A stretch of DNA of 21,302 bases from an uncultured Candidatus Saccharibacteria bacterium. Its GTDB lineage: Bacteria; Patescibacteriota; Saccharimonadia; CAILAD01; JADZBC01. The notes beneath the pieces are model-generated. The model saw nothing but the letters and a program-made list of their open reading frames with translations. It was not told the DNA's origin and made no database searches. A program made the translations under genes and the position numbers. This document shows, one piece after another, positions 4,391 through 17,425 of this stretch; the stretch's first letter is position 1, and the number at the start of each line of letters is the position of its first letter. The stretch spans positions 1 through 21,302 of the forward strand of contig CAZNJX010000005.1 of assembly GCA_964573585.1 (NCBI GenBank), read 5' to 3'.

Positions 4391-4465
4391 TGGGGCGTCG
4401 CCAAGTGGTAAGGCACCGGCTTTTGGTGCCGGCATTCGGGGGTTCGAATCCCTCCGCCCCAGCCA
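4391..4465 (+). tRNA. tRNA-Gln (anticodon UUG), CCA encoded
   Basis: Manual cloverleaf: acceptor UGGGGCG/CGCCCCA with U1-A72 and G73 (bacterial tRNA-Gln identity elements). D-arm GCC-AAGUGGUAA-GGC. Anticodon stem CCGGC/GCCGG with loop UUUUGGU (anticodon UUG). V-loop CAUUC. T-arm GGGGG-UUCGAAU-CCCUC. 3' CCA. Confidence 0.85.
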
Positions 4466-4497
4466 AGCATTTATACTAAATTAGTCCAACAGGTTAA

Positions 4498-4525
4498 AGA
4501 GCCCACTCGGAAGTGAGTGGGCTCT
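4498..4525. terminator. Hairpin agagcccactc-ggaagt-gagtgggctct downstream of tRNA-Gln, usable as terminator from either strand
   Basis: 11-bp perfect stem. On the minus strand it is followed by a U-rich run (uuuaaccuguugg). A degenerate copy occurs at 8035..8057. Confidence 0.5.
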
Positions 4526-4534
4526 CTGCGTAAA

Positions 4535-4590
4535 GTGATAATAACGTACTGCACCCCGGGACAAGTCCCGGGGGTGCGAATTGGTTAAGG
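4535..4590 (-). repeat. 3' element A, variant copy 0: GTGATAATAACG + GC hairpin gcaccccggga-caag-tcccgggggtgc
   Basis: Shares the 12-mer gtgataataacg with copies at 6372 and 8777. Hairpin sequence differs but position and tail are conserved, so on the gene strand it reads hairpin + aguaCGUUAUUAUCAC. Confidence 0.6.
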
Positions 4591-4639
4591 ACCCCATCGT
4601 CTGTGACGGTCGGCCGATGCGGGCCTTGCCGTCTTCGGC

Positions 4640-5665
4640 TCAGCGCTGGCGGTGATGCCAGCGATCCCTGCGGCGGCGGCCGATCATCTTCTGGAGTTCA
4701 GGCACTGAGTAGGTGCCCTCCTCCGGCTCGATACCATCCTTGGCAACCAGCGTCTTCACCATGATGCTCCCGTCGCGGTAGGCGGCGGCGGTGAAGGTGT
4801 ACTTCGTGCCGCCCTTGGCGACCACGAAGGGTTCTTCGATCTCCCCGAAGGAAGTCTGGAACATCGTGACGCCGCGAGCGACGTTGGCCGAGCGGGTCTC
4901 CGGCCCCTGGGTGGTGTGCCGCAGAGGGAAGTCCGAATCCGAGCAGTGCTTGCCAGTGCTGTAGCGCTTAACGTACGCGTCAAGCTTAGGCAGGTCGATG
5001 TGACCCCAATCCATGCCATAAGCCCCGATCGGGATGCCGTCGAGCATGTCTCGGATGCCGAGCTGGGCAAAGAGGGCACCGAGACTCTCTTCTGCAGGCA
5101 TGAGAGTATCGATGAACTCCTCATGCGCCTTGTGGGCCGCCGACTCGGCTTCCTGCTTGGCGATGAGCTCGTCGATAATCGGATGCGGAGAAATCTTGCC
5201 TTCCGCAACCAAACCCTTCAACTCGTGCACCGACACCTTGATGTCGCGATCGCGGACGATCGTCAGCATCGCCTCCAGCTCCTCGCTGGCCGGCACCGCG
5301 GCAAGGATCCCGGCACGGAGCGCGTCGAACGCCGCGCGGTCTCCGAACTCAGCCGCGAGCTCGTCGATGTGACGTTGGTCGCTCTGATGCGGATGTTCAG
5401 ATGCCGCGTACCAGCAGGCACACAGTGTACCGCTATTGATCTGCGGGGTGTGCTCCAGCAACTTCATGGCACGCCACGACTGGATGAGCATGTGCGGCAT
5501 CACGAGGCCCCAGATGGACCCACTGCCCTCGCTCGAGAGTTGATAGCCGACTCCGAATGAAGCGAACTCGCCTTCCCTGTCGGTTCCCGCAAACGGGATG
5601 ACCTCGTGCTCCTGGCCATCGATGACCTTGGTGCACGGATTTCCTTGGGCGACCAGAACGGTCAT
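4640..5665 (-). CDS. Hypothetical protein, about 65% GC (cargo 1). Weak suspicion of a DinB/MDMPI-like N-terminal domain (His-rich PHML...HTP...HPH).
   Basis: ORF-track ORF trimmed to the ATG at 5665, which lies 5 nt downstream of the conserved GAAAGGGG SD of leader L1. C-terminus ends in an Arg-rich tail GRRRRDRWHHRQR. No family recognised by eye. Confidence 0.7.
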   Translation of the reverse strand: MTVLVAQGNPCTKVIDGQEHEVIPFAGTDREGEFASFGVGYQLSSEGSGSIWGLVMPHMLIQSWRAMKLLEHTPQINSGTLCACWYAASEHPHQSDQRHIDELAAEFGDRAAFDALRAGILAAVPASEELEAMLTIVRDRDIKVSVHELKGLVAEGKISPHPIIDELIAKQEAESAAHKAHEEFIDTLMPAEESLGALFAQLGIRDMLDGIPIGAYGMDWGHIDLPKLDAYVKRYSTGKHCSDSDFPLRHTTQGPETRSANVARGVTMFQTSFGEIEEPFVVAKGGTKYTFTAAAYRDGSIMVKTLVAKDGIEPEEGTYSVPELQKMIGRRRRDRWHHRQR

Positions 5666-5707
5666 GTTGCACCCCTTTCTAAGGGCTCTTGTATCTAATA
5701 TTTCAAG
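5666..5707 (-). promoter_or_regulatory. Conserved 5' leader L1 (CTTGAAAT-N16-CCCTTAGAAAGGGG-N5-ATG)
   Basis: Homologous to leaders at 7813..7855 and 11504..11544. SD-like AAAGGGG sits 5 nt before the ATG in all three. Confidence 0.7.
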
Positions 5708-5753
5708 ATTGCAAATCGGGTAGTTTTGGAACTCCACCGAAAAGACAAATAAT

Positions 5754-5782
5754 ATTATACTACTTTTATGACATTCATGCAA
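5754..5782 (-). promoter_or_regulatory. sigma70-type promoter P1 (minus strand TTGCAT-17-TATAAT)
   Basis: Read on minus strand: ttgcat gaatgtcataaaagtag tataat. Positionally homologous promoters occur in modules 2 and 3. Confidence 0.6.
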
Positions 5783-5825
5783 GATAAAGATGCCCCAGAG
5801 CCCGCCATGCCCCACTTTGAGGCCA

Positions 5826-5862
5826 ATCGCAATCTAGACCACAGCGCTCAGCCAAGATAAAG
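5826..5862. repeat. Degenerate copy of the tRNA-Gln 3' end (cgctcagccaag vs cgccccagccaag)
   Basis: aatctagaccacagcgctcagccaagataaagcc aligns to the tRNA 3' end plus flank, and to the block at 7975..8000. Confidence 0.45.
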
Positions 5863-5904: not shown

Positions 5905-6300
5905 ATGAACAAATACAAAACCCTAGATGAATTCTTTGCAGACCAGTCAGAAGAGAAACGTATTCAAATAAAGATGCTTAGAAGGATTATCCTTGATGCA
6001 GAACCAGGTCTTATAGAGACTATCAAATGGAATGCACCGAATTATAGTTACAAAGGTGAGGACAGGCTTACATTCAACCTAGTGAATAAGCAAGGTCTAG
6101 TTAAGTTGGTTATACATATGGGGTCAGTAAAGAAAGAGAGTAAGAATACAAAGTCAGTCCTTGAAGAGGACGAAGGTATTGTTGAGTGGAATTCGAATAT
6201 CAGAGGTACTTTGAGTTTCGATGATATTGCAGATATTAAGAAAAAAGCTCAATTAGTTCAGAATGTCATTAAGAAGTGGCTCGCGATTAGTACTGAATAA
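5905..6300 (+). CDS. YdhG-like / DUF1801-family small protein, about 37% GC
   Basis: 131 aa. The segment TLDEFFADQSEEKRIQIKMLRRIILDAEPGLIETIKWNAPNY resembles the YdhG/DUF1801 N-terminal pattern. GC is much lower than both host and island cargo. Confidence 0.6.
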   Translation: MNKYKTLDEFFADQSEEKRIQIKMLRRIILDAEPGLIETIKWNAPNYSYKGEDRLTFNLVNKQGLVKLVIHMGSVKKESKNTKSVLEEDEGIVEWNSNIRGTLSFDDIADIKKKAQLVQNVIKKWLAISTE

Positions 6301-6331
6301 TCCAGATGCGACGCTCAGCCAATGTTCTTTC
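6296..6331. repeat. Second short degenerate tRNA-3'-end-like block (gacgctcagccaatg)
   Basis: tgaataatccagatgcgacgctcagccaatg vs tRNA cgaatccctccgccccagccaagc. Weaker than the other copies. Confidence 0.3.
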
Positions 6332-6371
6332 CAGTCTTAAGCCAATTATTTATAAACAGCTTCCGCAAAAA

Positions 6372-6477
6372 GTGATAATAACGAATTGGACCCCACGTTA
6401 CCGTGGGGTCCGAGATCTATGCCTCTGCTTGGTATGCCTTGGATCTCATTCCGGGCATGCAGCTGATGGGCTTGCTG
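6372..6477 (-). repeat. 3' element A copy 1 (106 bp): 3' UTR plus intrinsic-terminator-like hairpin ggaccccacg-ttac-cgtggggtcc and conserved tail
   Basis: About 95% identical to 8777..8880. Begins 6 nt after the stop codon of cargo 2. Contains an internal inverted repeat gagatc...gatctc enclosing a duplicated aggcata. Sharp homology boundary at gtgata. Confidence 0.8.
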
Positions 6478-6483
6478 TTCAGG

Positions 6484-13775: not shown

Positions 13776-14210
13776 CTACGTCGAAGCATGCATTGACTTC
13801 ATTGCGCGGTATGACCTGCGCAGAAGCTCCTTGAGAACCTCGAGGTCAACGTCGGCCAGCTTGCTTATATACAAGCAAGACACGCTGGTTTTGTGTTTGC
13901 CAAGTTTGGCGAGTAGATCCTTATAGCCATCAAAGCCGGGCATAATGTAGAGCGTGAGGCTTTGCTTCCTGGGCGAAAAAGCAATCAGCGGCCAGTCGCC
14001 CTCCTGGCTGCTCCGCTCAGACTTGTAATGATACATACCAAACCCGACTATGCTCGCACCCCACATCTTGGCTGGCTCACCAGTAATATCACCCAGGAGC
14101 TCTAAAAGCGTCAGGCTATCCCGCCTCTTTGTCTCCTCCGGGACAGCGTTGATAAATGCCATGACACTAGCATCATTGGGCAGCGTCTTTATCGTACTCA
14201 TGTAGGTCAT
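13776..14210 (-). CDS. DUF1801 domain protein
   Basis: 144 aa. MWGASIVGFGMYHYKSERSSQEGDWPLIAFSPRKQSLTLYIM matches the conserved GFG.YhY...G...GFSpRK..L.lY core of PF08818-type proteins (recalled, not searched). Confidence 0.65.
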   Translation of the reverse strand: MTYMSTIKTLPNDASVMAFINAVPEETKRRDSLTLLELLGDITGEPAKMWGASIVGFGMYHYKSERSSQEGDWPLIAFSPRKQSLTLYIMPGFDGYKDLLAKLGKHKTSVSCLYISKLADVDLEVLKELLRRSYRAMKSMHAST

Positions 14211-14394
14211 TATAGCAAATTACTAACCCCATACCAGGGCAGAATAACAAGCCCGCTAGCTTGTAAAGCTATGCTATAATGACCCTGTCAATAAGCCCAG
14301 ACATCAAAGTAGCCTTTAGTCCAAGGAATACCTACTTGGCTGGCAAACACATCCCCGGACACATCAACACAATATAACCAAAAGGAGTCGTGCT

Positions 14395-14624: not shown

Positions 14625-14984
14625 TCACTTCCGCAGTATCTTCTCGATTGCTTTACCTTTGGCCAGTTCATCAACCAACTTATCTAAATAGCGAATGTTC
14701 TGCATGGTCGGCTCCTTAATGTCCTCTACCCTAACTCCGCAGATAACTCCCGTAATCAGCCTTCGAGCCGGGTTCATGCTCGGCGCTTCGGCAAAGAAGG
14801 TTGCGACGTCTGTACTGTTCTTCAGCTGTGCTGCCATTTGTGCAGGGCTATAGCCCGTCAACCAGCAAATCACCTCATCGACCTCTGCCTTAGTGCGCCC
14901 CTTCCTCTCGGCCTTTGCGACATAGTGCGGGTACACGCTCGCAAAGCTAATCCGATAAATTCGATGTTCTGTAGCACTACTCAC
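14625..14984 (-). CDS. Conserved hypothetical protein (DUF2200-like)
   Basis: 119 aa. [38 protein letters not shown] resembles the DUF2200 N-terminal block (recalled). GTG start, 8 nt after the stop of the upstream VOC gene (translational coupling). Confidence 0.6.
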
Positions 14985-16472: not shown

Positions 16473-16485
16473 ACGCACTTAGGTC

Positions 16486-16514
16486 TTGATCTATGGCATT
16501 AAAAATGGTATTAT
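16486..16514 (+). promoter_or_regulatory. Strong sigma70 promoter TTGATC-17-(TGg)TATTAT with extended -10
   Basis: ttgatc tatggcattaaaaatgg tattat. The TG is 1 nt upstream of the -10. Confidence 0.6.
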
Positions 16515-16525
16515 GTATCAGCATT

Positions 16526-16547: not shown

Positions 16548-16612
16548 CCATTTGACGAGAGCAAAAAAGCCATCACGGTCACACCGTGAACGATCCAACG
16601 AGAAAGCAGGCG

Positions 16613-17425
16613 ATGAGAATGAATACGGAAAATGACTATGACGATATCTTCGTCGGAGACACAACCGCGATGGTGCCAGCCAGACCCTTGTTCCGCGACA
16701 TGTTCATTCACCCGGAAGCCCAGGTGGAGAACGTTCGCCGATGGAGCTTCGGGCGAGGCACGGGATTCGCGGCGCGTGACATCGACAAGGTGGCGGACCA
16801 ACTCGCCGAACTGGACTGGCCCCAAGGCCGCCTGACGGTGCTGACCTTGGTCCCGTACCTCCCGACGGTGCAGCAAACCGTCGAGGCGCTGTGGGCCTGT
16901 GCTCGGCAGGCTCAACCGAGCGGCCTGCTGCTCGGCAACATCAAGACCGACCCCAAGCGTCTCTGGCTGGCCAAGGGCATTGAGCACCAGCCAGGGCTTA
17001 GGTGGGAGATCATCAATCTCGGCGCTTACCAGGCTGACGGTAGAGGGGTCAGTCCGATCGAGTGTCGGGATACCAACTCGGCCCACGCCGGTGTACTGGC
17101 AGCAGCGGCTCACTTTCCGCTCTGGGTACAGGCAATGGCGGGCAATGATGTCCCGCCCGTCTGGATCCCGGGCTACCAGGTGCGTACGGGGTCGTTCGGC
17201 GACCTTACTCGCACCATACACTTGGGTTGGCGACCGCTCTGGGGCTCGGGCGGCGACAACGAGCCCAGCCCCTGGGGCATCACGCTCGACGCCAGCTTGT
17301 CTGACGCTCGAACACCCCCTTGGGCAGGCCCGATCATCACCTGGTCCGGTCCATTGGTTAAGCCCACGTCAGCCCCTCGGGAACTGAATGCGGGCAATCG
17401 GGCCAAGCTAGCCCTGTCGGCTTAA
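16613..17425 (+). CDS. Hypothetical protein, about 65% GC, isolated foreign-looking gene. Start ambiguous (GTG 16586, ATG 16613 or ATG 16619).
   Basis: 279-aa ORF chosen over the overlapping antisense 225-aa ORF because it is longer and bracketed by a promoter/operator and a terminator on the + strand. No family recognised. No good SD. Confidence 0.6.
   Translation: MRMNTENDYDDIFVGDTTAMVPARPLFRDMFIHPEAQVENVRRWSFGRGTGFAARDIDKVADQLAELDWPQGRLTVLTLVPYLPTVQQTVEALWACARQAQPSGLLLGNIKTDPKRLWLAKGIEHQPGLRWEIINLGAYQADGRGVSPIECRDTNSAHAGVLAAAAHFPLWVQAMAGNDVPPVWIPGYQVRTGSFGDLTRTIHLGWRPLWGSGGDNEPSPWGITLDASLSDARTPPWAGPIITWSGPLVKPTSAPRELNAGNRAKLALSA

Follow-up and report, generated by a model that had tools for sequence, protein, structure and literature searches.

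A putative structured 3'-UTR repeat downstream of unrelated GC3-rich accessory genes, including a vault-protein homologue, in a Saccharibacteria lineage

Small RNAs (sRNAs) derived from 3' untranslated regions (UTRs) include s-SodF of Streptomyces and CpxQ and SroC of enterobacteria. The PeSLs (promoter-early stem-loops) of T4-like phages are small conserved intergenic modules, composite terminator/promoter cassettes consisting of a G/C-rich stem-loop and a sigma-70-like promoter, which flank non-essential variable ORFs and for which promoter and terminator activity as well as mini-circles have been shown experimentally (PMC2839356, PMC4122927). The stretch of DNA analysed here (21,302 nucleotides from an uncultured Candidatus Saccharibacteria bacterium, hereafter the window) carries a repeat which, judged from its sequence, is a structured RNA segment of ~115 nt located 3' of unrelated GC-rich accessory genes in a small group of Saccharibacteria. 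We regard it as a regulatory or terminator module, new though narrow in distribution, and not as a transposon.

Gene regulation and genome plasticity in Saccharibacteria and other Patescibacteria are, to our knowledge, almost uncharted, and a literature search on transcriptome, terminator or noncoding RNA listed nothing mentioning Saccharibacteria. One of the accessory genes encodes a homologue of the major vault protein (MVP); literature searches on MVP in Patescibacteria or the candidate phyla radiation found no papers.

Copies of the repeat and the genes they follow

The genes c1, c2 and c3, their neighbours and the copies of the element in the window are as follows; R1 denotes a covariance model built from five copies.

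4391..4465, plus strand: tRNA-Gln(UUG) (ARAGORN, Rfam)
4526..4635, minus strand: diverged copy of the element after c1 (R1 23.3 bits, E=0.0098)
4640..5671, minus strand: c1, 343 aa, no family match, GC3 0.79
6363..6486, minus strand: full 3'-UTR element copy after c2, which takes in the stop codon, ends shortly beyond the tail and forms one arm of the 105-nt repeat D1 (R1 142.8 bits, E=7.6e-31)
6484..7812, minus strand: c2, 442-aa membrane protein, GC3 0.71
8137..8673, minus strand: MaoC-like dehydratase unit with its own promoter (8757-8729) and terminator (8112-8091)
8769..8886, minus strand: full copy after the MVP homologue c3 (R1 134.5 bits, E=6.8e-29)
8882..11503, minus strand: c3, 873-aa MVP homologue with MVP_shoulder and Vault_3 domains, GC3 0.65

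The direct repeat comprises 105 nt at 96% identity (6370-6474 and 8775-8879, both on the minus, or gene, strand), which bears out a 105-bp, 95%-identical repeat proposed earlier by a sequence-only reading of the window (6372..6477 and 8777..8880), and 92 of 94 positions are identical in the aligned core of the c2 and c3 copies. Both copies lie directly 3' of stop codons on the minus strand, as had also been proposed (c2 TGA at 6484-6486; MVP TAA at 8882-8884, which lines up with the first bases of the element when the copies are aligned). R1 detected both at E-values of ~1e-29 to 1e-31, far past chance.

Beyond these two, three further full copies and four partial copies consisting of hairpin plus tail were identified across the window and two related Saccharibacteria metagenome-assembled genomes (MAGs). 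The five full copies thus come from the only three MAGs in which the element is known. The other full copies follow the MVP orthologue and a 106-aa gene in locus L018 and a DUF1360 gene in L008/L032, those after the 106-aa and DUF1360 genes beginning at the stop codon itself (TGAAGAACAAG). The c3 copy is orthologous to L018:12608-12727, which is located after a 77%-identical MVP gene. Element copies are 96-98% identical within a genome and 82-90% between genomes. Every copy follows a gene with GC3 of 0.65-0.92, against a background of ~0.5, and hairpin plus tail occurs 2-4 times per 15-21 kb locus, only after GC3-rich genes: the tail is carried by all four GC3-rich units in L032 and by none of ~14 other genes there, by both such units in L018, and by c1, c2 and c3 in the window.

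A third site at 4535-4590, said earlier to combine a different hairpin with the same tail, is indeed present behind c1. The c1 3' UTR retains the lead, has lost the stem-loop P1 described below, and consists of a remnant (GGGGUCC..AAUUCG), a new hairpin (4551-4577) and the tail CGUUAUUAUCAC (4535-4546). Its orthologue at L032:11178-11285 has a covarying hairpin, the base of which shows a G-C to A-U change between the window and L032. Among all fetched loci, the 11-mer AAUGAGAUCCA of the P1 loop was found outside the copies only in the MVP 3' UTR of L020, where it pairs with a downstream AUCUU.

By the searches made here, the repeat is not a known REP, MITE or Rfam family. In Rfam gathering mode only the tRNA scored above threshold in the window, and none of the hammerhead, twister, pistol and hatchet ribozyme families did. 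E-value mode was applied to the region as well as to the isolated element; its top match was the sodF sRNA at 13.9 bits, against a gathering threshold of 46. Phage and plasmid blastn gave no match, and two metagenome scans recovered no element copy (zero matches in the first; five in the second, all to unrelated sequence). Matches to viral contigs were attributed to chance and those to other genome contigs, from Melainabacteria and similar genomes, to coding-sequence coincidence. A REP or MITE identity was rejected: a 21-mer spanning tail and P3 (the GC hairpin defined below) occurs once per genome in two related scanned genomes and is thus not high copy, its ends (UGAACAGCAAG... and ...GUUAUUAUCAC) show no complementarity to each other, and the c2 and c3 flanks share no duplication. 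A DGR TR/VR pair was likewise rejected, the differences not being adenine-specific, both copies being non-coding and there being no reverse transcriptase.

Structure, strand and conservation of the element

Five parts can be distinguished. A short single-stranded lead comes first, followed by P1, which is a bulged stem-loop, and P2, a pairing of GAGAUC with GAUCUC that may form a pseudoknot; P3, a GC hairpin of 10 bp, and the invariant tail AAUUCGUUAUNAUCAC complete the element. Their positions are:

6372..6387, minus strand: tail of the c2 copy, invariant and single-stranded, AAUUCGUUAUUAUCAC (15-16 of 16 positions identical in all five full copies)
6388..6411, minus strand: P3 of the c2 copy, 10-bp GC hairpin GGACCCCACG-GUAA-CGUGGGGUCC (inverted repeat I2; terminator-like in the scan)
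6412..6417, minus strand: 3' arm GAUCUC of the candidate pseudoknot P2, c2 copy; partner GAGAUC at 6442-6447 in the P1 loop
6425..6462, minus strand: P1 of the c2 copy, bulged stem-loop CUGCAUGCC-C-GGA-AUGAGA-UCC-AA-GGCAU-ACCAA-GCAG (RNAalifold consensus)
c3 copy, minus strand: P1 8830-8867; P2 arms 8817-8822 and 8847-8852; P3 8793-8816; tail 8777-8792

All copies folded better than their own shuffles (z from -2.4 to -5.4). P1, of which the c2 copy is 92-97% identical to one of the L018 copies (L018a) and to L008, varies at pairs 32-56 (A-U, G·U or G-C), 33-55 (U-A or U·G) and 34-54 (G-C or G·U). P2 pairs in 30 of 30 cells, with a single U·G change in L008, and appears in the minimum-free-energy fold of the second L018 copy (L018b). 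The internal features listed by the sequence-only reading (GAGAUC...GAUCUC, GCAUGC and AGGCAUA-N8-AGGCAUA) are all present in the window, but the orthologous copies do not keep the second AGGCAUA. P3 has 8 GC pairs in 10 bp. Across copies, an A-U pair has once become G-C by compensatory change and a G·U has arisen once, and a stable stem-loop is present in all of them; the predicted hairpin stands at 6388-6411 and 8793-8816 and is followed by the tail AAUUCGUUAU(U/C)AUCAC. More generally, CGTTATNATCAC follows a GC hairpin at nine sites, at a spacing of four or five nt at eight and zero nt at L018b, and four distinct hairpin sequences occur upstream of the tail across these nine sites.

Pairing was maintained in 123 of 124 cells on the gene strand versus 119 of 124 on the opposite strand, and all five one-sided changes are G·U on the gene strand. 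The A to G substitution at 6390/8795, previously described as structure-preserving, does not fit this description: it gives G·U only in a plus-strand transcript, while on the gene strand, to which the earlier reading referred, the U to C change leaves an A·C mismatch in P3 of the c3 copy. Two compensatory pairs were found among the five full copies, and P2 showed no double changes. The search for additional copies and covariation was modestly rewarded, in that five full copies in three genomes are now available, but covariation did not reach significance (79 of 500 shuffles attained the observed score, with five sequences representing about three independent lineages).

Between the window and L018, 35 of 38 P1 positions and 15-16 of 16 tail positions are identical, compared with 74% identity for the MVP coding sequence (CDS) and 71% for the MVP leader. 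Between lineages, P1 is 92-97% and the tail 94-100% identical, while the 8-nt linker retains 2 of 8 positions. The 5' leaders are ~64-65% identical, in agreement with the earlier figure of ~65%. A function beyond termination, as had been suggested, is supported by conservation above that of the adjacent coding sequence, by stems that fit the gene strand and by a separate downstream terminator in most copies.

Cassette junctions, flank exchange and competing explanations

The junctions between the genes contain the following further features:

4499..4525, no strand: terminator T, canonical bidirectional hairpin GAGCCCACUC-N6-GAGUGGGCUC, between the c1 tail and tRNA-Gln (read from the sequence)
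5833..5853, minus strand: junction motif GGCTGAGCGCTGTGGTCTAGA upstream of the c1 promoter
6303..6326, minus strand: degenerate junction motif TTGGCTGAGCGTCGCATCTGGAT, 45 nt downstream of the c2 tail (found by eye)
7981..8001, minus strand: junction motif GACTGAGCGTTGCGGTCTGGA upstream of the c2 promoter

The terminator T hairpin, flanked by A and U runs, follows the tail at two sites in L018 and four in L032, and a canonical A-run/hairpin/U-run terminator stands 9 nt past the tail at six of the nine sites that carry a tail. Terminator T is missing at c2 and c3, where hairpin and tail alone are retained. TTGACT-16-TATAAG occurs after hairpin, tail and terminator T at c1 (in weaker form), at two L018 sites and at four L032 sites. 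Junction motif GACTGAGCGTTGCGGTCTGGA has five occurrences in L032 and two in L018, all of them on the strand of the cassettes, and same-strand copies of motif TTGGCTGAGCGTTGTGGTCTAGAT bracket each cassette. At the array end, the reverse complement of the tRNA-Gln 3' end (TTGGCTGGGGCGG) sits where the 24-nt junction motif stands at other cassette ends, and homology to the L032 c1 cassette begins at 4471. The MaoC promoter region begins right after the c3 tail, and a degenerate tail with terminator T lies on the far side of the MaoC unit at 8035-8075.

Homology ends at GTGAT in the c2/c3 comparison, between the window MVP and L018 MVP regions, and at the MaoC-unit junction. The sharp GTGAT boundary, cited earlier for the possibility that the element is the recombination end of a cassette, is real and recurs. 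The repeat at the cassette junctions is made up of the tail, terminator T, the promoter-like P2 and the 24-nt motif, and most of it falls outside the 105-mer. Orthologues of c2 in L019 and L022 have a different, short 5' leader and an unrelated 3' UTR; in these two and in a further orthologue, in L023, that other 3' UTR contains a hammerhead-like core. Since the c2 orthologues elsewhere carry another leader and 3' UTR, c2 of the window has acquired MVP-type flanks. The element showed no significant similarity to the hammerhead-like UTR of these orthologues, and a hammerhead or other ribozyme within the element was rejected, the hammerhead pattern CTGATGAG-N8-30-CGAAA being absent from the window. 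Whole cassettes also turn over: L018 and L032 share gene order at 95-98% identity until a single break point, after which L018 has MVP and L032 an 83-aa gene and c1; L018 and L008 differ by a ~560-nt insertion bounded by two motif copies; and the c1 cassette forms an 85.6% conserved block in different genomic contexts, conserved from the motif to the promoter-like P2. NCBIfam and PADLOC gave no match for c1, c2, the MVP homologue, the high-GC gene at 16586-17425 or the L008 and L018 ORFs.

From these comparisons we put at about an even chance that the element acts in cis as a 3'-UTR module and has spread through recombination of cassette flanks, akin to phage PeSLs. The repeat would then be the transcribed 3' UTR, ~115 nt long, of minus-strand mRNAs, starting at the stop codon or a few bases past it. 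Hairpin and 16-nt tail would be the common 3'-end signature of GC3-rich accessory cassettes in this Saccharibacteria lineage, forming or protecting the mRNA 3' end either as a weak intrinsic terminator or as an exonuclease barrier ahead of the canonical back-up terminator. The P1/P2 domain, an extra and sequence-constrained part on a subset of cassettes only (the MVP gene, c2, the 106-aa gene and the DUF1360 operon), may be where a trans-acting factor docks to co-regulate or stabilise the transcripts. Cassette-flank recombination, presumably the same process that swaps whole cassettes between close genomes, would have copied onto c2 first the MVP-type 5' leader and later the MVP-type 3' UTR, which would explain the near identity of the two window copies. 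The comparisons show the copies and where they lie, their strand preference and conservation, the exchange of the c2 flanks and the turnover of cassettes; that the element is transcribed, has a part in 3'-end formation or stability and binds a partner is what we infer from them. The search for a candidate binding protein or target RNA yielded none, and RNAduplex energies for pairing between 5' leader and 3' UTR were no better than those of shuffles.

A wider interpretation, which we regard as possible though rather unlikely, takes the 105-mer as the tip of an undescribed Saccharibacteria cassette system, in which GC3-rich single-gene units, the MVP gene being one and each having a promoter, leader, ORF and structured 3' UTR to itself, would be inserted, swapped and arrayed at hot spots including the tRNA-Gln 3' end, with hairpin plus tail or the motif as the recombination site and P1/P2 marking a vault-associated regulon. 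As part of the same tentative interpretation, the units would be bracketed by a conserved junction of ~150 nt composed of GC hairpin, invariant tail, bidirectional terminator, promoter and 24-nt motif. If true, an ultra-small bacterium would possess on its chromosome a counterpart to integrons or phage PeSLs.

We consider it improbable that the element is an intrinsic terminator with neutral hitch-hiking sequence, its identity stemming from recent gene conversion and P1 being functionless. Its position directly after stop codons, the terminator-like score of the c2 hairpin and tail in the scan, and the lack of terminator T at the c2 and c3 copies, which would leave P3 as the sole terminator for c2, all fit termination alone, and the higher identity within than between genomes (96-98% versus 82-90%) shows recent copying. 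Against this, P1 and tail are 92-100% identical where the MVP CDS is at 74% and the intervening linker is free to vary (2 of 8), the varying P1 pairs change yet stay paired, and most copies have a strong canonical terminator 9 nt later. The tail is, moreover, conserved base for base, which exceeds what a U-tract needs. The sequence after the stem (AAUUCGUUAU) has 3-6 U in its first nine bases depending on the copy and is only moderately U-rich; the scan flagged c2 and not c3. The tail contains a good -10 hexamer TATNAT, the sole variable base being hexamer position 4, and this pattern hints at a promoter role at the DNA level instead. These features of the tail also weigh against the favoured cis-acting module, as do the non-significant covariation, the A·C mismatch in P3 of c3 and the restriction of known copies to three MAGs. 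Were the element no more than termination and gene conversion, it would be a useful annotation and not a discovery.

Equally doubtful is a trans-acting 3'-UTR-derived sRNA of ~100-140 nt (P1, P3 and terminator), released by cleavage in the lead or from an internal promoter, whose unpaired segments ACCAAGCAG and AAUGAGAUCCAAGG and tail would pair with other mRNAs. The 3' UTR is more conserved than the CDS, single-stranded segments included; a 5' stem-loop followed by a terminal hairpin is the known layout of 3'-UTR sRNAs (the sodF near-match, at E=5, is non-significant); and multiple copies per genome would raise the RNA dose. The window, however, holds no complementary target, the tail complement occurring only in the elements themselves, and no conserved promoter lies 5' of P1.

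Somewhat less probable still is that a putative recombinase recognises hairpin plus tail, or else the entire junction, as a recombination site in the DNA, possibly acting on folded single-stranded DNA, by which single-gene cassettes would be inserted, excised and swapped with tRNA-Gln as an anchor, functionally like integron attC or a tRNA-targeting island element. This would account for the recurrence of ATCAC break points (at the end of the c2/c3 repeat and of window-MVP versus L018-MVP homology, 8775/12720), for the start of the MaoC unit at the c3 tail with a degenerate tail and terminator T on its other side, for the insertion of the new c1 hairpin inside the tail, between AATTCG and CGTTAT, and for the same-strand TTGGCTGAGCGTTGTGGTCTAGAT copies that bracket each cassette, with tRNA-Gln TTGGCTGGGGCGG at the array end. 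Cassette differences at one site between genomes of 95-98% identity, the ~560-nt L018/L008 insertion and the 85.6% conserved c1 block in varying contexts point the same way. Plain homologous recombination would nevertheless also give break points at conserved repeats, the tRNA and the motif have only ~8-10 nt in common, and neither the window nor the examined 15-21 kb loci encode an integrase, HUH nuclease or transposase, nor was there any integron integrase or other recombinase domain in window ORFs or called genes of the L018 and L032 loci. The form of the element speaks against it as well, and an attC identity was rejected: R''/R' cores (RYYYAAC, GTTRRRY) are unmatched at the element ends on either strand, and there is no end-to-end palindrome, the stems being internal only. 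The G·U pattern favours a gene-strand RNA over an element that acts purely as DNA, although folded DNA would also tolerate G·T.

A functional plus strand, giving either an antisense RNA from the GATAAT-like tail or an encoded peptide or read-through extension, is highly improbable: the c3 substitution is G·U on that strand, which also folds slightly better (z = -3.55 versus -3.04), and the frame stays open for 46 codons past the c2 UGA with a 15-codon ATG ORF on the plus strand, but the five wobble changes turn into C·A mismatches, no -35 box is conserved, the variable base of the hexamer is at a critical position, and the frames are unconserved (c3, which ends in UAA, and L018a use other frames, L018a has a 1-nt insertion and no ATG, and L008 has an in-frame stop after 11 codons). 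Coding or read-through was accordingly rejected on the differing post-stop frames, the stops or indels and the missing start codon of the L018 plus-strand mini-ORF, and an antisense promoter at GATAAT on the absence of a conserved -35 box and a strand test in favour of the gene strand.

Comparison with described systems

As a conserved structured 3'-UTR module on unrelated accessory genes, the element would be among the first cis-regulatory RNA candidates for Saccharibacteria or Patescibacteria, and it offers a concrete probe for RNA-seq, Term-seq and pull-down. The architecture suggests how reduced genomes may gain and express foreign or mobile genes, with distinct ORFs, differing between near-identical genomes, placed in reusable shells of promoter and leader on one side and UTR and terminator on the other.

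REP/BIME, MITE and Correia repeats are likewise short structured repeats located after genes that can terminate or stabilise mRNA; the present element differs in its low copy number, its lack of terminal inverted repeats or target-site duplication and its association with one compositional class of genes. With attC arrays it has in common repeats of 60-140 nt 3' of each ORF, an array in the same orientation, unrelated single-gene cassettes, high similarity of copies within a genome and hairpin potential, whereas R''/R' cores, a spanning imperfect palindrome and a nearby IntI are lacking and each cassette has its own promoter and leader.

The 3'-UTR sRNAs resemble it in a UTR more conserved than the CDS, a stem-loop followed by a terminal hairpin and conserved unpaired segments; here, one UTR stands on several unrelated genes and the match to sodF is non-significant. 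Intrinsic terminators share the GC-rich 10-bp hairpin 3' of a stop codon followed by a U/A-rich stretch, and a hairpin kept by compensatory change or, in c1, by substitution with a different hairpin. They differ from the present element in that its post-hairpin sequence is fixed base for base and makes a poor U-tract, a second canonical terminator is usual, and ~60 nt of conserved structure lie 5' of the hairpin.

The PeSLs provide a close comparison for the favoured cis-acting module. The Saccharibacteria junctions are distinct in lying on a Patescibacteria chromosome, in their GC3-rich ORFs, P1/P2 RNA domain, invariant tail and 24-nt motif, and recombination at the modules is deduced here from genome comparisons, whereas for PeSLs it was shown through mini-circles. 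Notwithstanding these differences, both combine a stem-loop with a sigma-70-like promoter module (here hairpin, tail, terminator T and TTGACT-16-TATAAG), and both flank variable ORFs in hot spots where relatives differ by insertion, deletion or replacement and homology ends within the modules.

The 3'-UTR repeat and its distribution

Our repeat search returned a direct repeat of 105 nt with 96% identity (6370-6474 and 8775-8879), both copies of which lie on the minus strand directly 3' of stop codons, as follows:

4640-5671, minus strand, cassette gene c1, whose 3' site has another hairpin but the same CGUUAUUAUCAC
6484-7812, minus strand, cassette gene c2, a 442-aa membrane protein (TGA 6484-6486), full repeat copy downstream
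8882-11503, minus strand, cassette gene c3, 873 aa with MVP_shoulder and Vault_3 (TAA 8882-8884), full repeat copy downstream
6388-6411, minus strand, 10-bp P3 hairpin of the c2 copy
8793-8816, minus strand, 10-bp P3 hairpin of the c3 copy

The hairpin described in the sequence-only reading is present in both copies and is followed, as claimed, by a tail, AAUUCGUUAU(U/C)AUCAC; the GAGAUC/GAUCUC repeat and GCAUGC palindrome were also found, and the proposed third site, with a new hairpin and the same tail, was borne out after c1. The stem substitution held to turn A-U into G-U did not stand, being G·U on the plus strand only and an A·C mismatch on the gene strand.

A degenerate 21-mer across the tail and P3, scanned against one genome per species, gave genuine matches in two MAGs, one of Candidatus Saccharibacteria (L001; locus L018) and one labelled "Patescibacteria group" (L008; locus L032); the remaining genome matches were coding-sequence coincidences. 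Nothing relevant came from viral contigs or from phage and plasmid records, and two metagenome scans recovered no copy. In L018 the element lies downstream of an orthologue of the major vault protein (MVP) gene with 77% amino-acid identity to c3; a second copy, 1.5 kb from the first, follows a 106-aa gene that is unrelated. The L008/L032 copy lies downstream of a DUF1360-like gene. The ORFs ahead of this copy and of the second L018 copy are unrelated, yet the two copies are alike from the first nucleotide past the stop codon (TGAAGAACAAGTCCACC). R1, a covariance model made from the five full copies, further picked up diverged or partial versions:

window, c1 3' UTR, diverged/partial
L032, 3' UTR of the c1 orthologue, diverged/partial
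after an 83-aa gene, P3 and tail only
after a flavodoxin-like gene, other hairpins with CGTTATAATCAC

MVP orthologues at 64-69% identity (L019, L020, L021) and c2 orthologues (L019, L022, L024) were without the element. Rfam gave no match to it, and the literature searched did not contain it. The element is real, conserved and plausibly structured, and its known distribution is narrow.

Tail, junctions and GC3-rich cassettes

The tail tracks whichever GC hairpin precedes it, at a spacing of four or five nt at 8/9 sites and zero nt at the second L018 copy; its sole variable base gives TATNAT, the conservation of which may reflect constraint either on the RNA or on a promoter-like DNA site. The two window copies after c2 and c3 break off exactly after ATCAC, followed 3' of the c3 tail by the MaoC gene's own promoter and 3' of the c2 tail by unrelated sequence with a degenerate 24-nt motif. 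Our preferred reading of the element is a cis-acting 3'-UTR RNA module of the gene strand; a rival reading is a DNA recombination site.

A second rival is a plain terminator. However, a canonical bidirectional terminator T (AAAAAGCCCACUC-N6-GAGUGGGCUUUUU) lies 9 nt past the tail at six of the nine tail-bearing sites, which counts against termination alone. T is followed by a good sigma-70-like promoter (promoter P2, TTGACT-16-TATAAG) and then by the 24-nt motif TTGGCTGAGCGTTGTGGTCTAGAT:

window 5833-5853, 7981-8001 and 6303-6326, minus strand, motif TTGGCTGAGCGTTGTGGTCTAGAT, always on the cassette strand and bracketing cassettes
L018:12840-12863 and 14816-14839, and five sites in L032, motif TTGGCTGAGCGTTGTGGTCTAGAT, always on the cassette strand
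window 4499-4525 and 8035-8057; L018:12727-12760, 14197-14230 and 8532-8615; four or more sites in L032, terminator-promoter module (A-run, GCCCACTC-N6-GAGTGGGC, T-run, TTGACT-16-TATAAG)

The motif opens with 7-10 nt identical to the reverse-complemented 3' end of tRNA-Gln and two further bases, and two motif copies flank a ~560-nt insertion that distinguishes L018 and L008. The terminator-promoter module is a general intergenic repeat of the lineage, since ordinary low-GC3 genes have it between them as well.

All units with hairpin and tail have a GC3 of 0.65-0.92, other genes in these genomes having ~0.45-0.6; they comprise c1, c2 and c3 in the window, 2/2 GC3-rich units in L018, and 4/4 GC3-rich units but 0/~14 other genes in L032. 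High GC3 in c2 and MVP homologues holds in AT-richer relatives (L024 c2, 0.77 vs ~0.4; L020 MVP, 0.49 vs ~0.33). L018 and L032 share synteny at 95-98% identity as far as L018:9467 / L032:9412, past which L018 has the MVP unit and L032 an 83-aa unit plus c1. Taken from motif to promoter P2, the c1 unit shows 85.6% conservation between the window and L032 in differing surroundings; in the window it adjoins tRNA-Gln, whose reverse-complemented 3' end fills the motif position.

More broadly, a gene class with GC3 0.65-0.93 in genomes of GC3 0.35-0.6 includes window c1, c2, MaoC, MVP and 16586-17425, and genes of L018, L019, L024 and L032. A second promoter module, ...AAAAATGGTATTATG (window 16478-16515, plus strand; L018:13556-13592), is common to the 279-aa gene 16586-17425 and the L018 38-aa + 106-aa operon, both GC3-rich. 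Of two DUF1801 genes in the window (5905-6300, plus; 13776-14210, minus), the former has a GC3 of 0.37, well under the rest of the contig, and is inverted relative to the c1 and c2 cassettes that lie on either side of it, its start almost leaderless after TATAGT. Between the synteny break and the MVP promoter, ~400 nt of GC-rich sequence (L018:9468-9860) opens with a promoter-like TTGACA-17-TATGAT, has an unconvincing longest ORF of 54 aa, gave nothing in Rfam at gathering thresholds, and may be an unannotated RNA.

RNA structure, strand and conservation

RNAalifold and manual pair counts gave four helices:

P1, gene strand, outer stem CUGC/GCAG and middle stem RUGCC/GGYRY
inner stem GGA/UCC, or alternatively candidate pseudoknot P2, GAGAUC/GRUCUC (loop pairs downstream)
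P3, gene strand, 10-bp hairpin

The third rival is that the element is a source of 3'-UTR-derived small RNA; the least likely is that it is antisense or coding. On the gene strand 123/124 cells pair, versus 119/124 on the opposite strand. The five one-sided changes are all G·U on the gene strand and C·A mismatches on the opposite strand, two changes in element copies are double (compensatory), and the c1-type hairpin covaries between the window and L032. The gene-strand structure is plausible but not proven, because the shuffle control of covariation (79/500) was not significant with so few sequences.

Identity between lineages is 92-97% in P1 and 94-100% in the tail, the 8-nt linker matches at 2/8 positions, and the MVP coding sequence and leader are 74% and 71% identical; such uneven conservation suggests constraint. 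The only occurrences of the 11-mer AAUGAGAUCCA among all fetched loci are in these elements and, in the more distant L020, in the MVP 3' UTR, where a complement further downstream again pairs with it.

The vault-protein homologue and a reading of the element

The c3 product is a full-length MVP homologue (MVP_shoulder E=9.5e-24, plus Vault_3) with 5715 matches at E<=1e-10, one labelled Parcubacteria group and several annotated "major vault protein"; our literature searches for MVP together with Patescibacteria or the candidate phyla radiation yielded no papers. In its neighbourhood in relatives, a tmRNA gene precedes the MVP gene by ~1.5 kb (L020:8166-8556; L021:7963-8354), and in L021 an 85-aa RRM_1 RNA-binding protein is encoded two genes downstream of MVP (L021:13776-14033), a possible lead to an RNA-binding partner of MVP-region transcripts. 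A group I intron (L024:8685-8888, 68.6 bits) lies ~1.1 kb upstream of a c2 homologue.

Both flanks of window c2 are MVP-type, the leader at ~65% and the 3' UTR at 96-98% identity, whereas in L019 and L022 its orthologues carry a short leader of another kind and a different 3' UTR with no significant resemblance to the element. The simplest account is that c2 was set in an MVP-type shell by recombination between the flanks of cassettes, with recent homogenisation of the 3' part. The c2-orthologue 3' UTR holds a textbook minimal hammerhead core (type III), GCCUAU-U|CUGC-AUA-GCAG-CUGAUGAG-ACCCA..UGGGU-CGAAA-UAGGC, at these sites:

L019:1-178, minus strand
L022:2199-2345
L023:~2150-2300

Between L019 and L022, stems II and III differ by compensatory changes; among the fetched loci the pattern is confined to these sites, and Rfam models did not report the candidate. 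Unrelated cassette genes also have a promoter and 5' leader in common (TTGAnT-17-TAGAAT, AAATCGTCTTTTCGG, CCTTGAAAT):

window 5672-5800, 7813-7930 and 11504-11620, minus strand
L018:9880-10000

The leader hairpin CCCUUAGAAAGGGG adjoins the start codon and would half-sequester the Shine-Dalgarno sequence; between the MVP genes of the window and L018 the leader is conserved.

In the favoured cis-acting module, the hairpin and tail would be a 3'-end-forming or protecting unit general to the cassette class, P1 and pseudoknot P2 would add a docking domain on a subset of cassettes, and recombination between conserved flanks would spread both parts and keep copies alike. The main interest lies in the cassette architecture and its link to a bacterial vault-protein gene, the function of the element being putative. 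Among described systems the closest analogue is the PeSL of T4-like phages, a composite terminator/promoter cassette that flanks variable ORFs and through which modules are shuffled (PMC2839356, PMC4122927).
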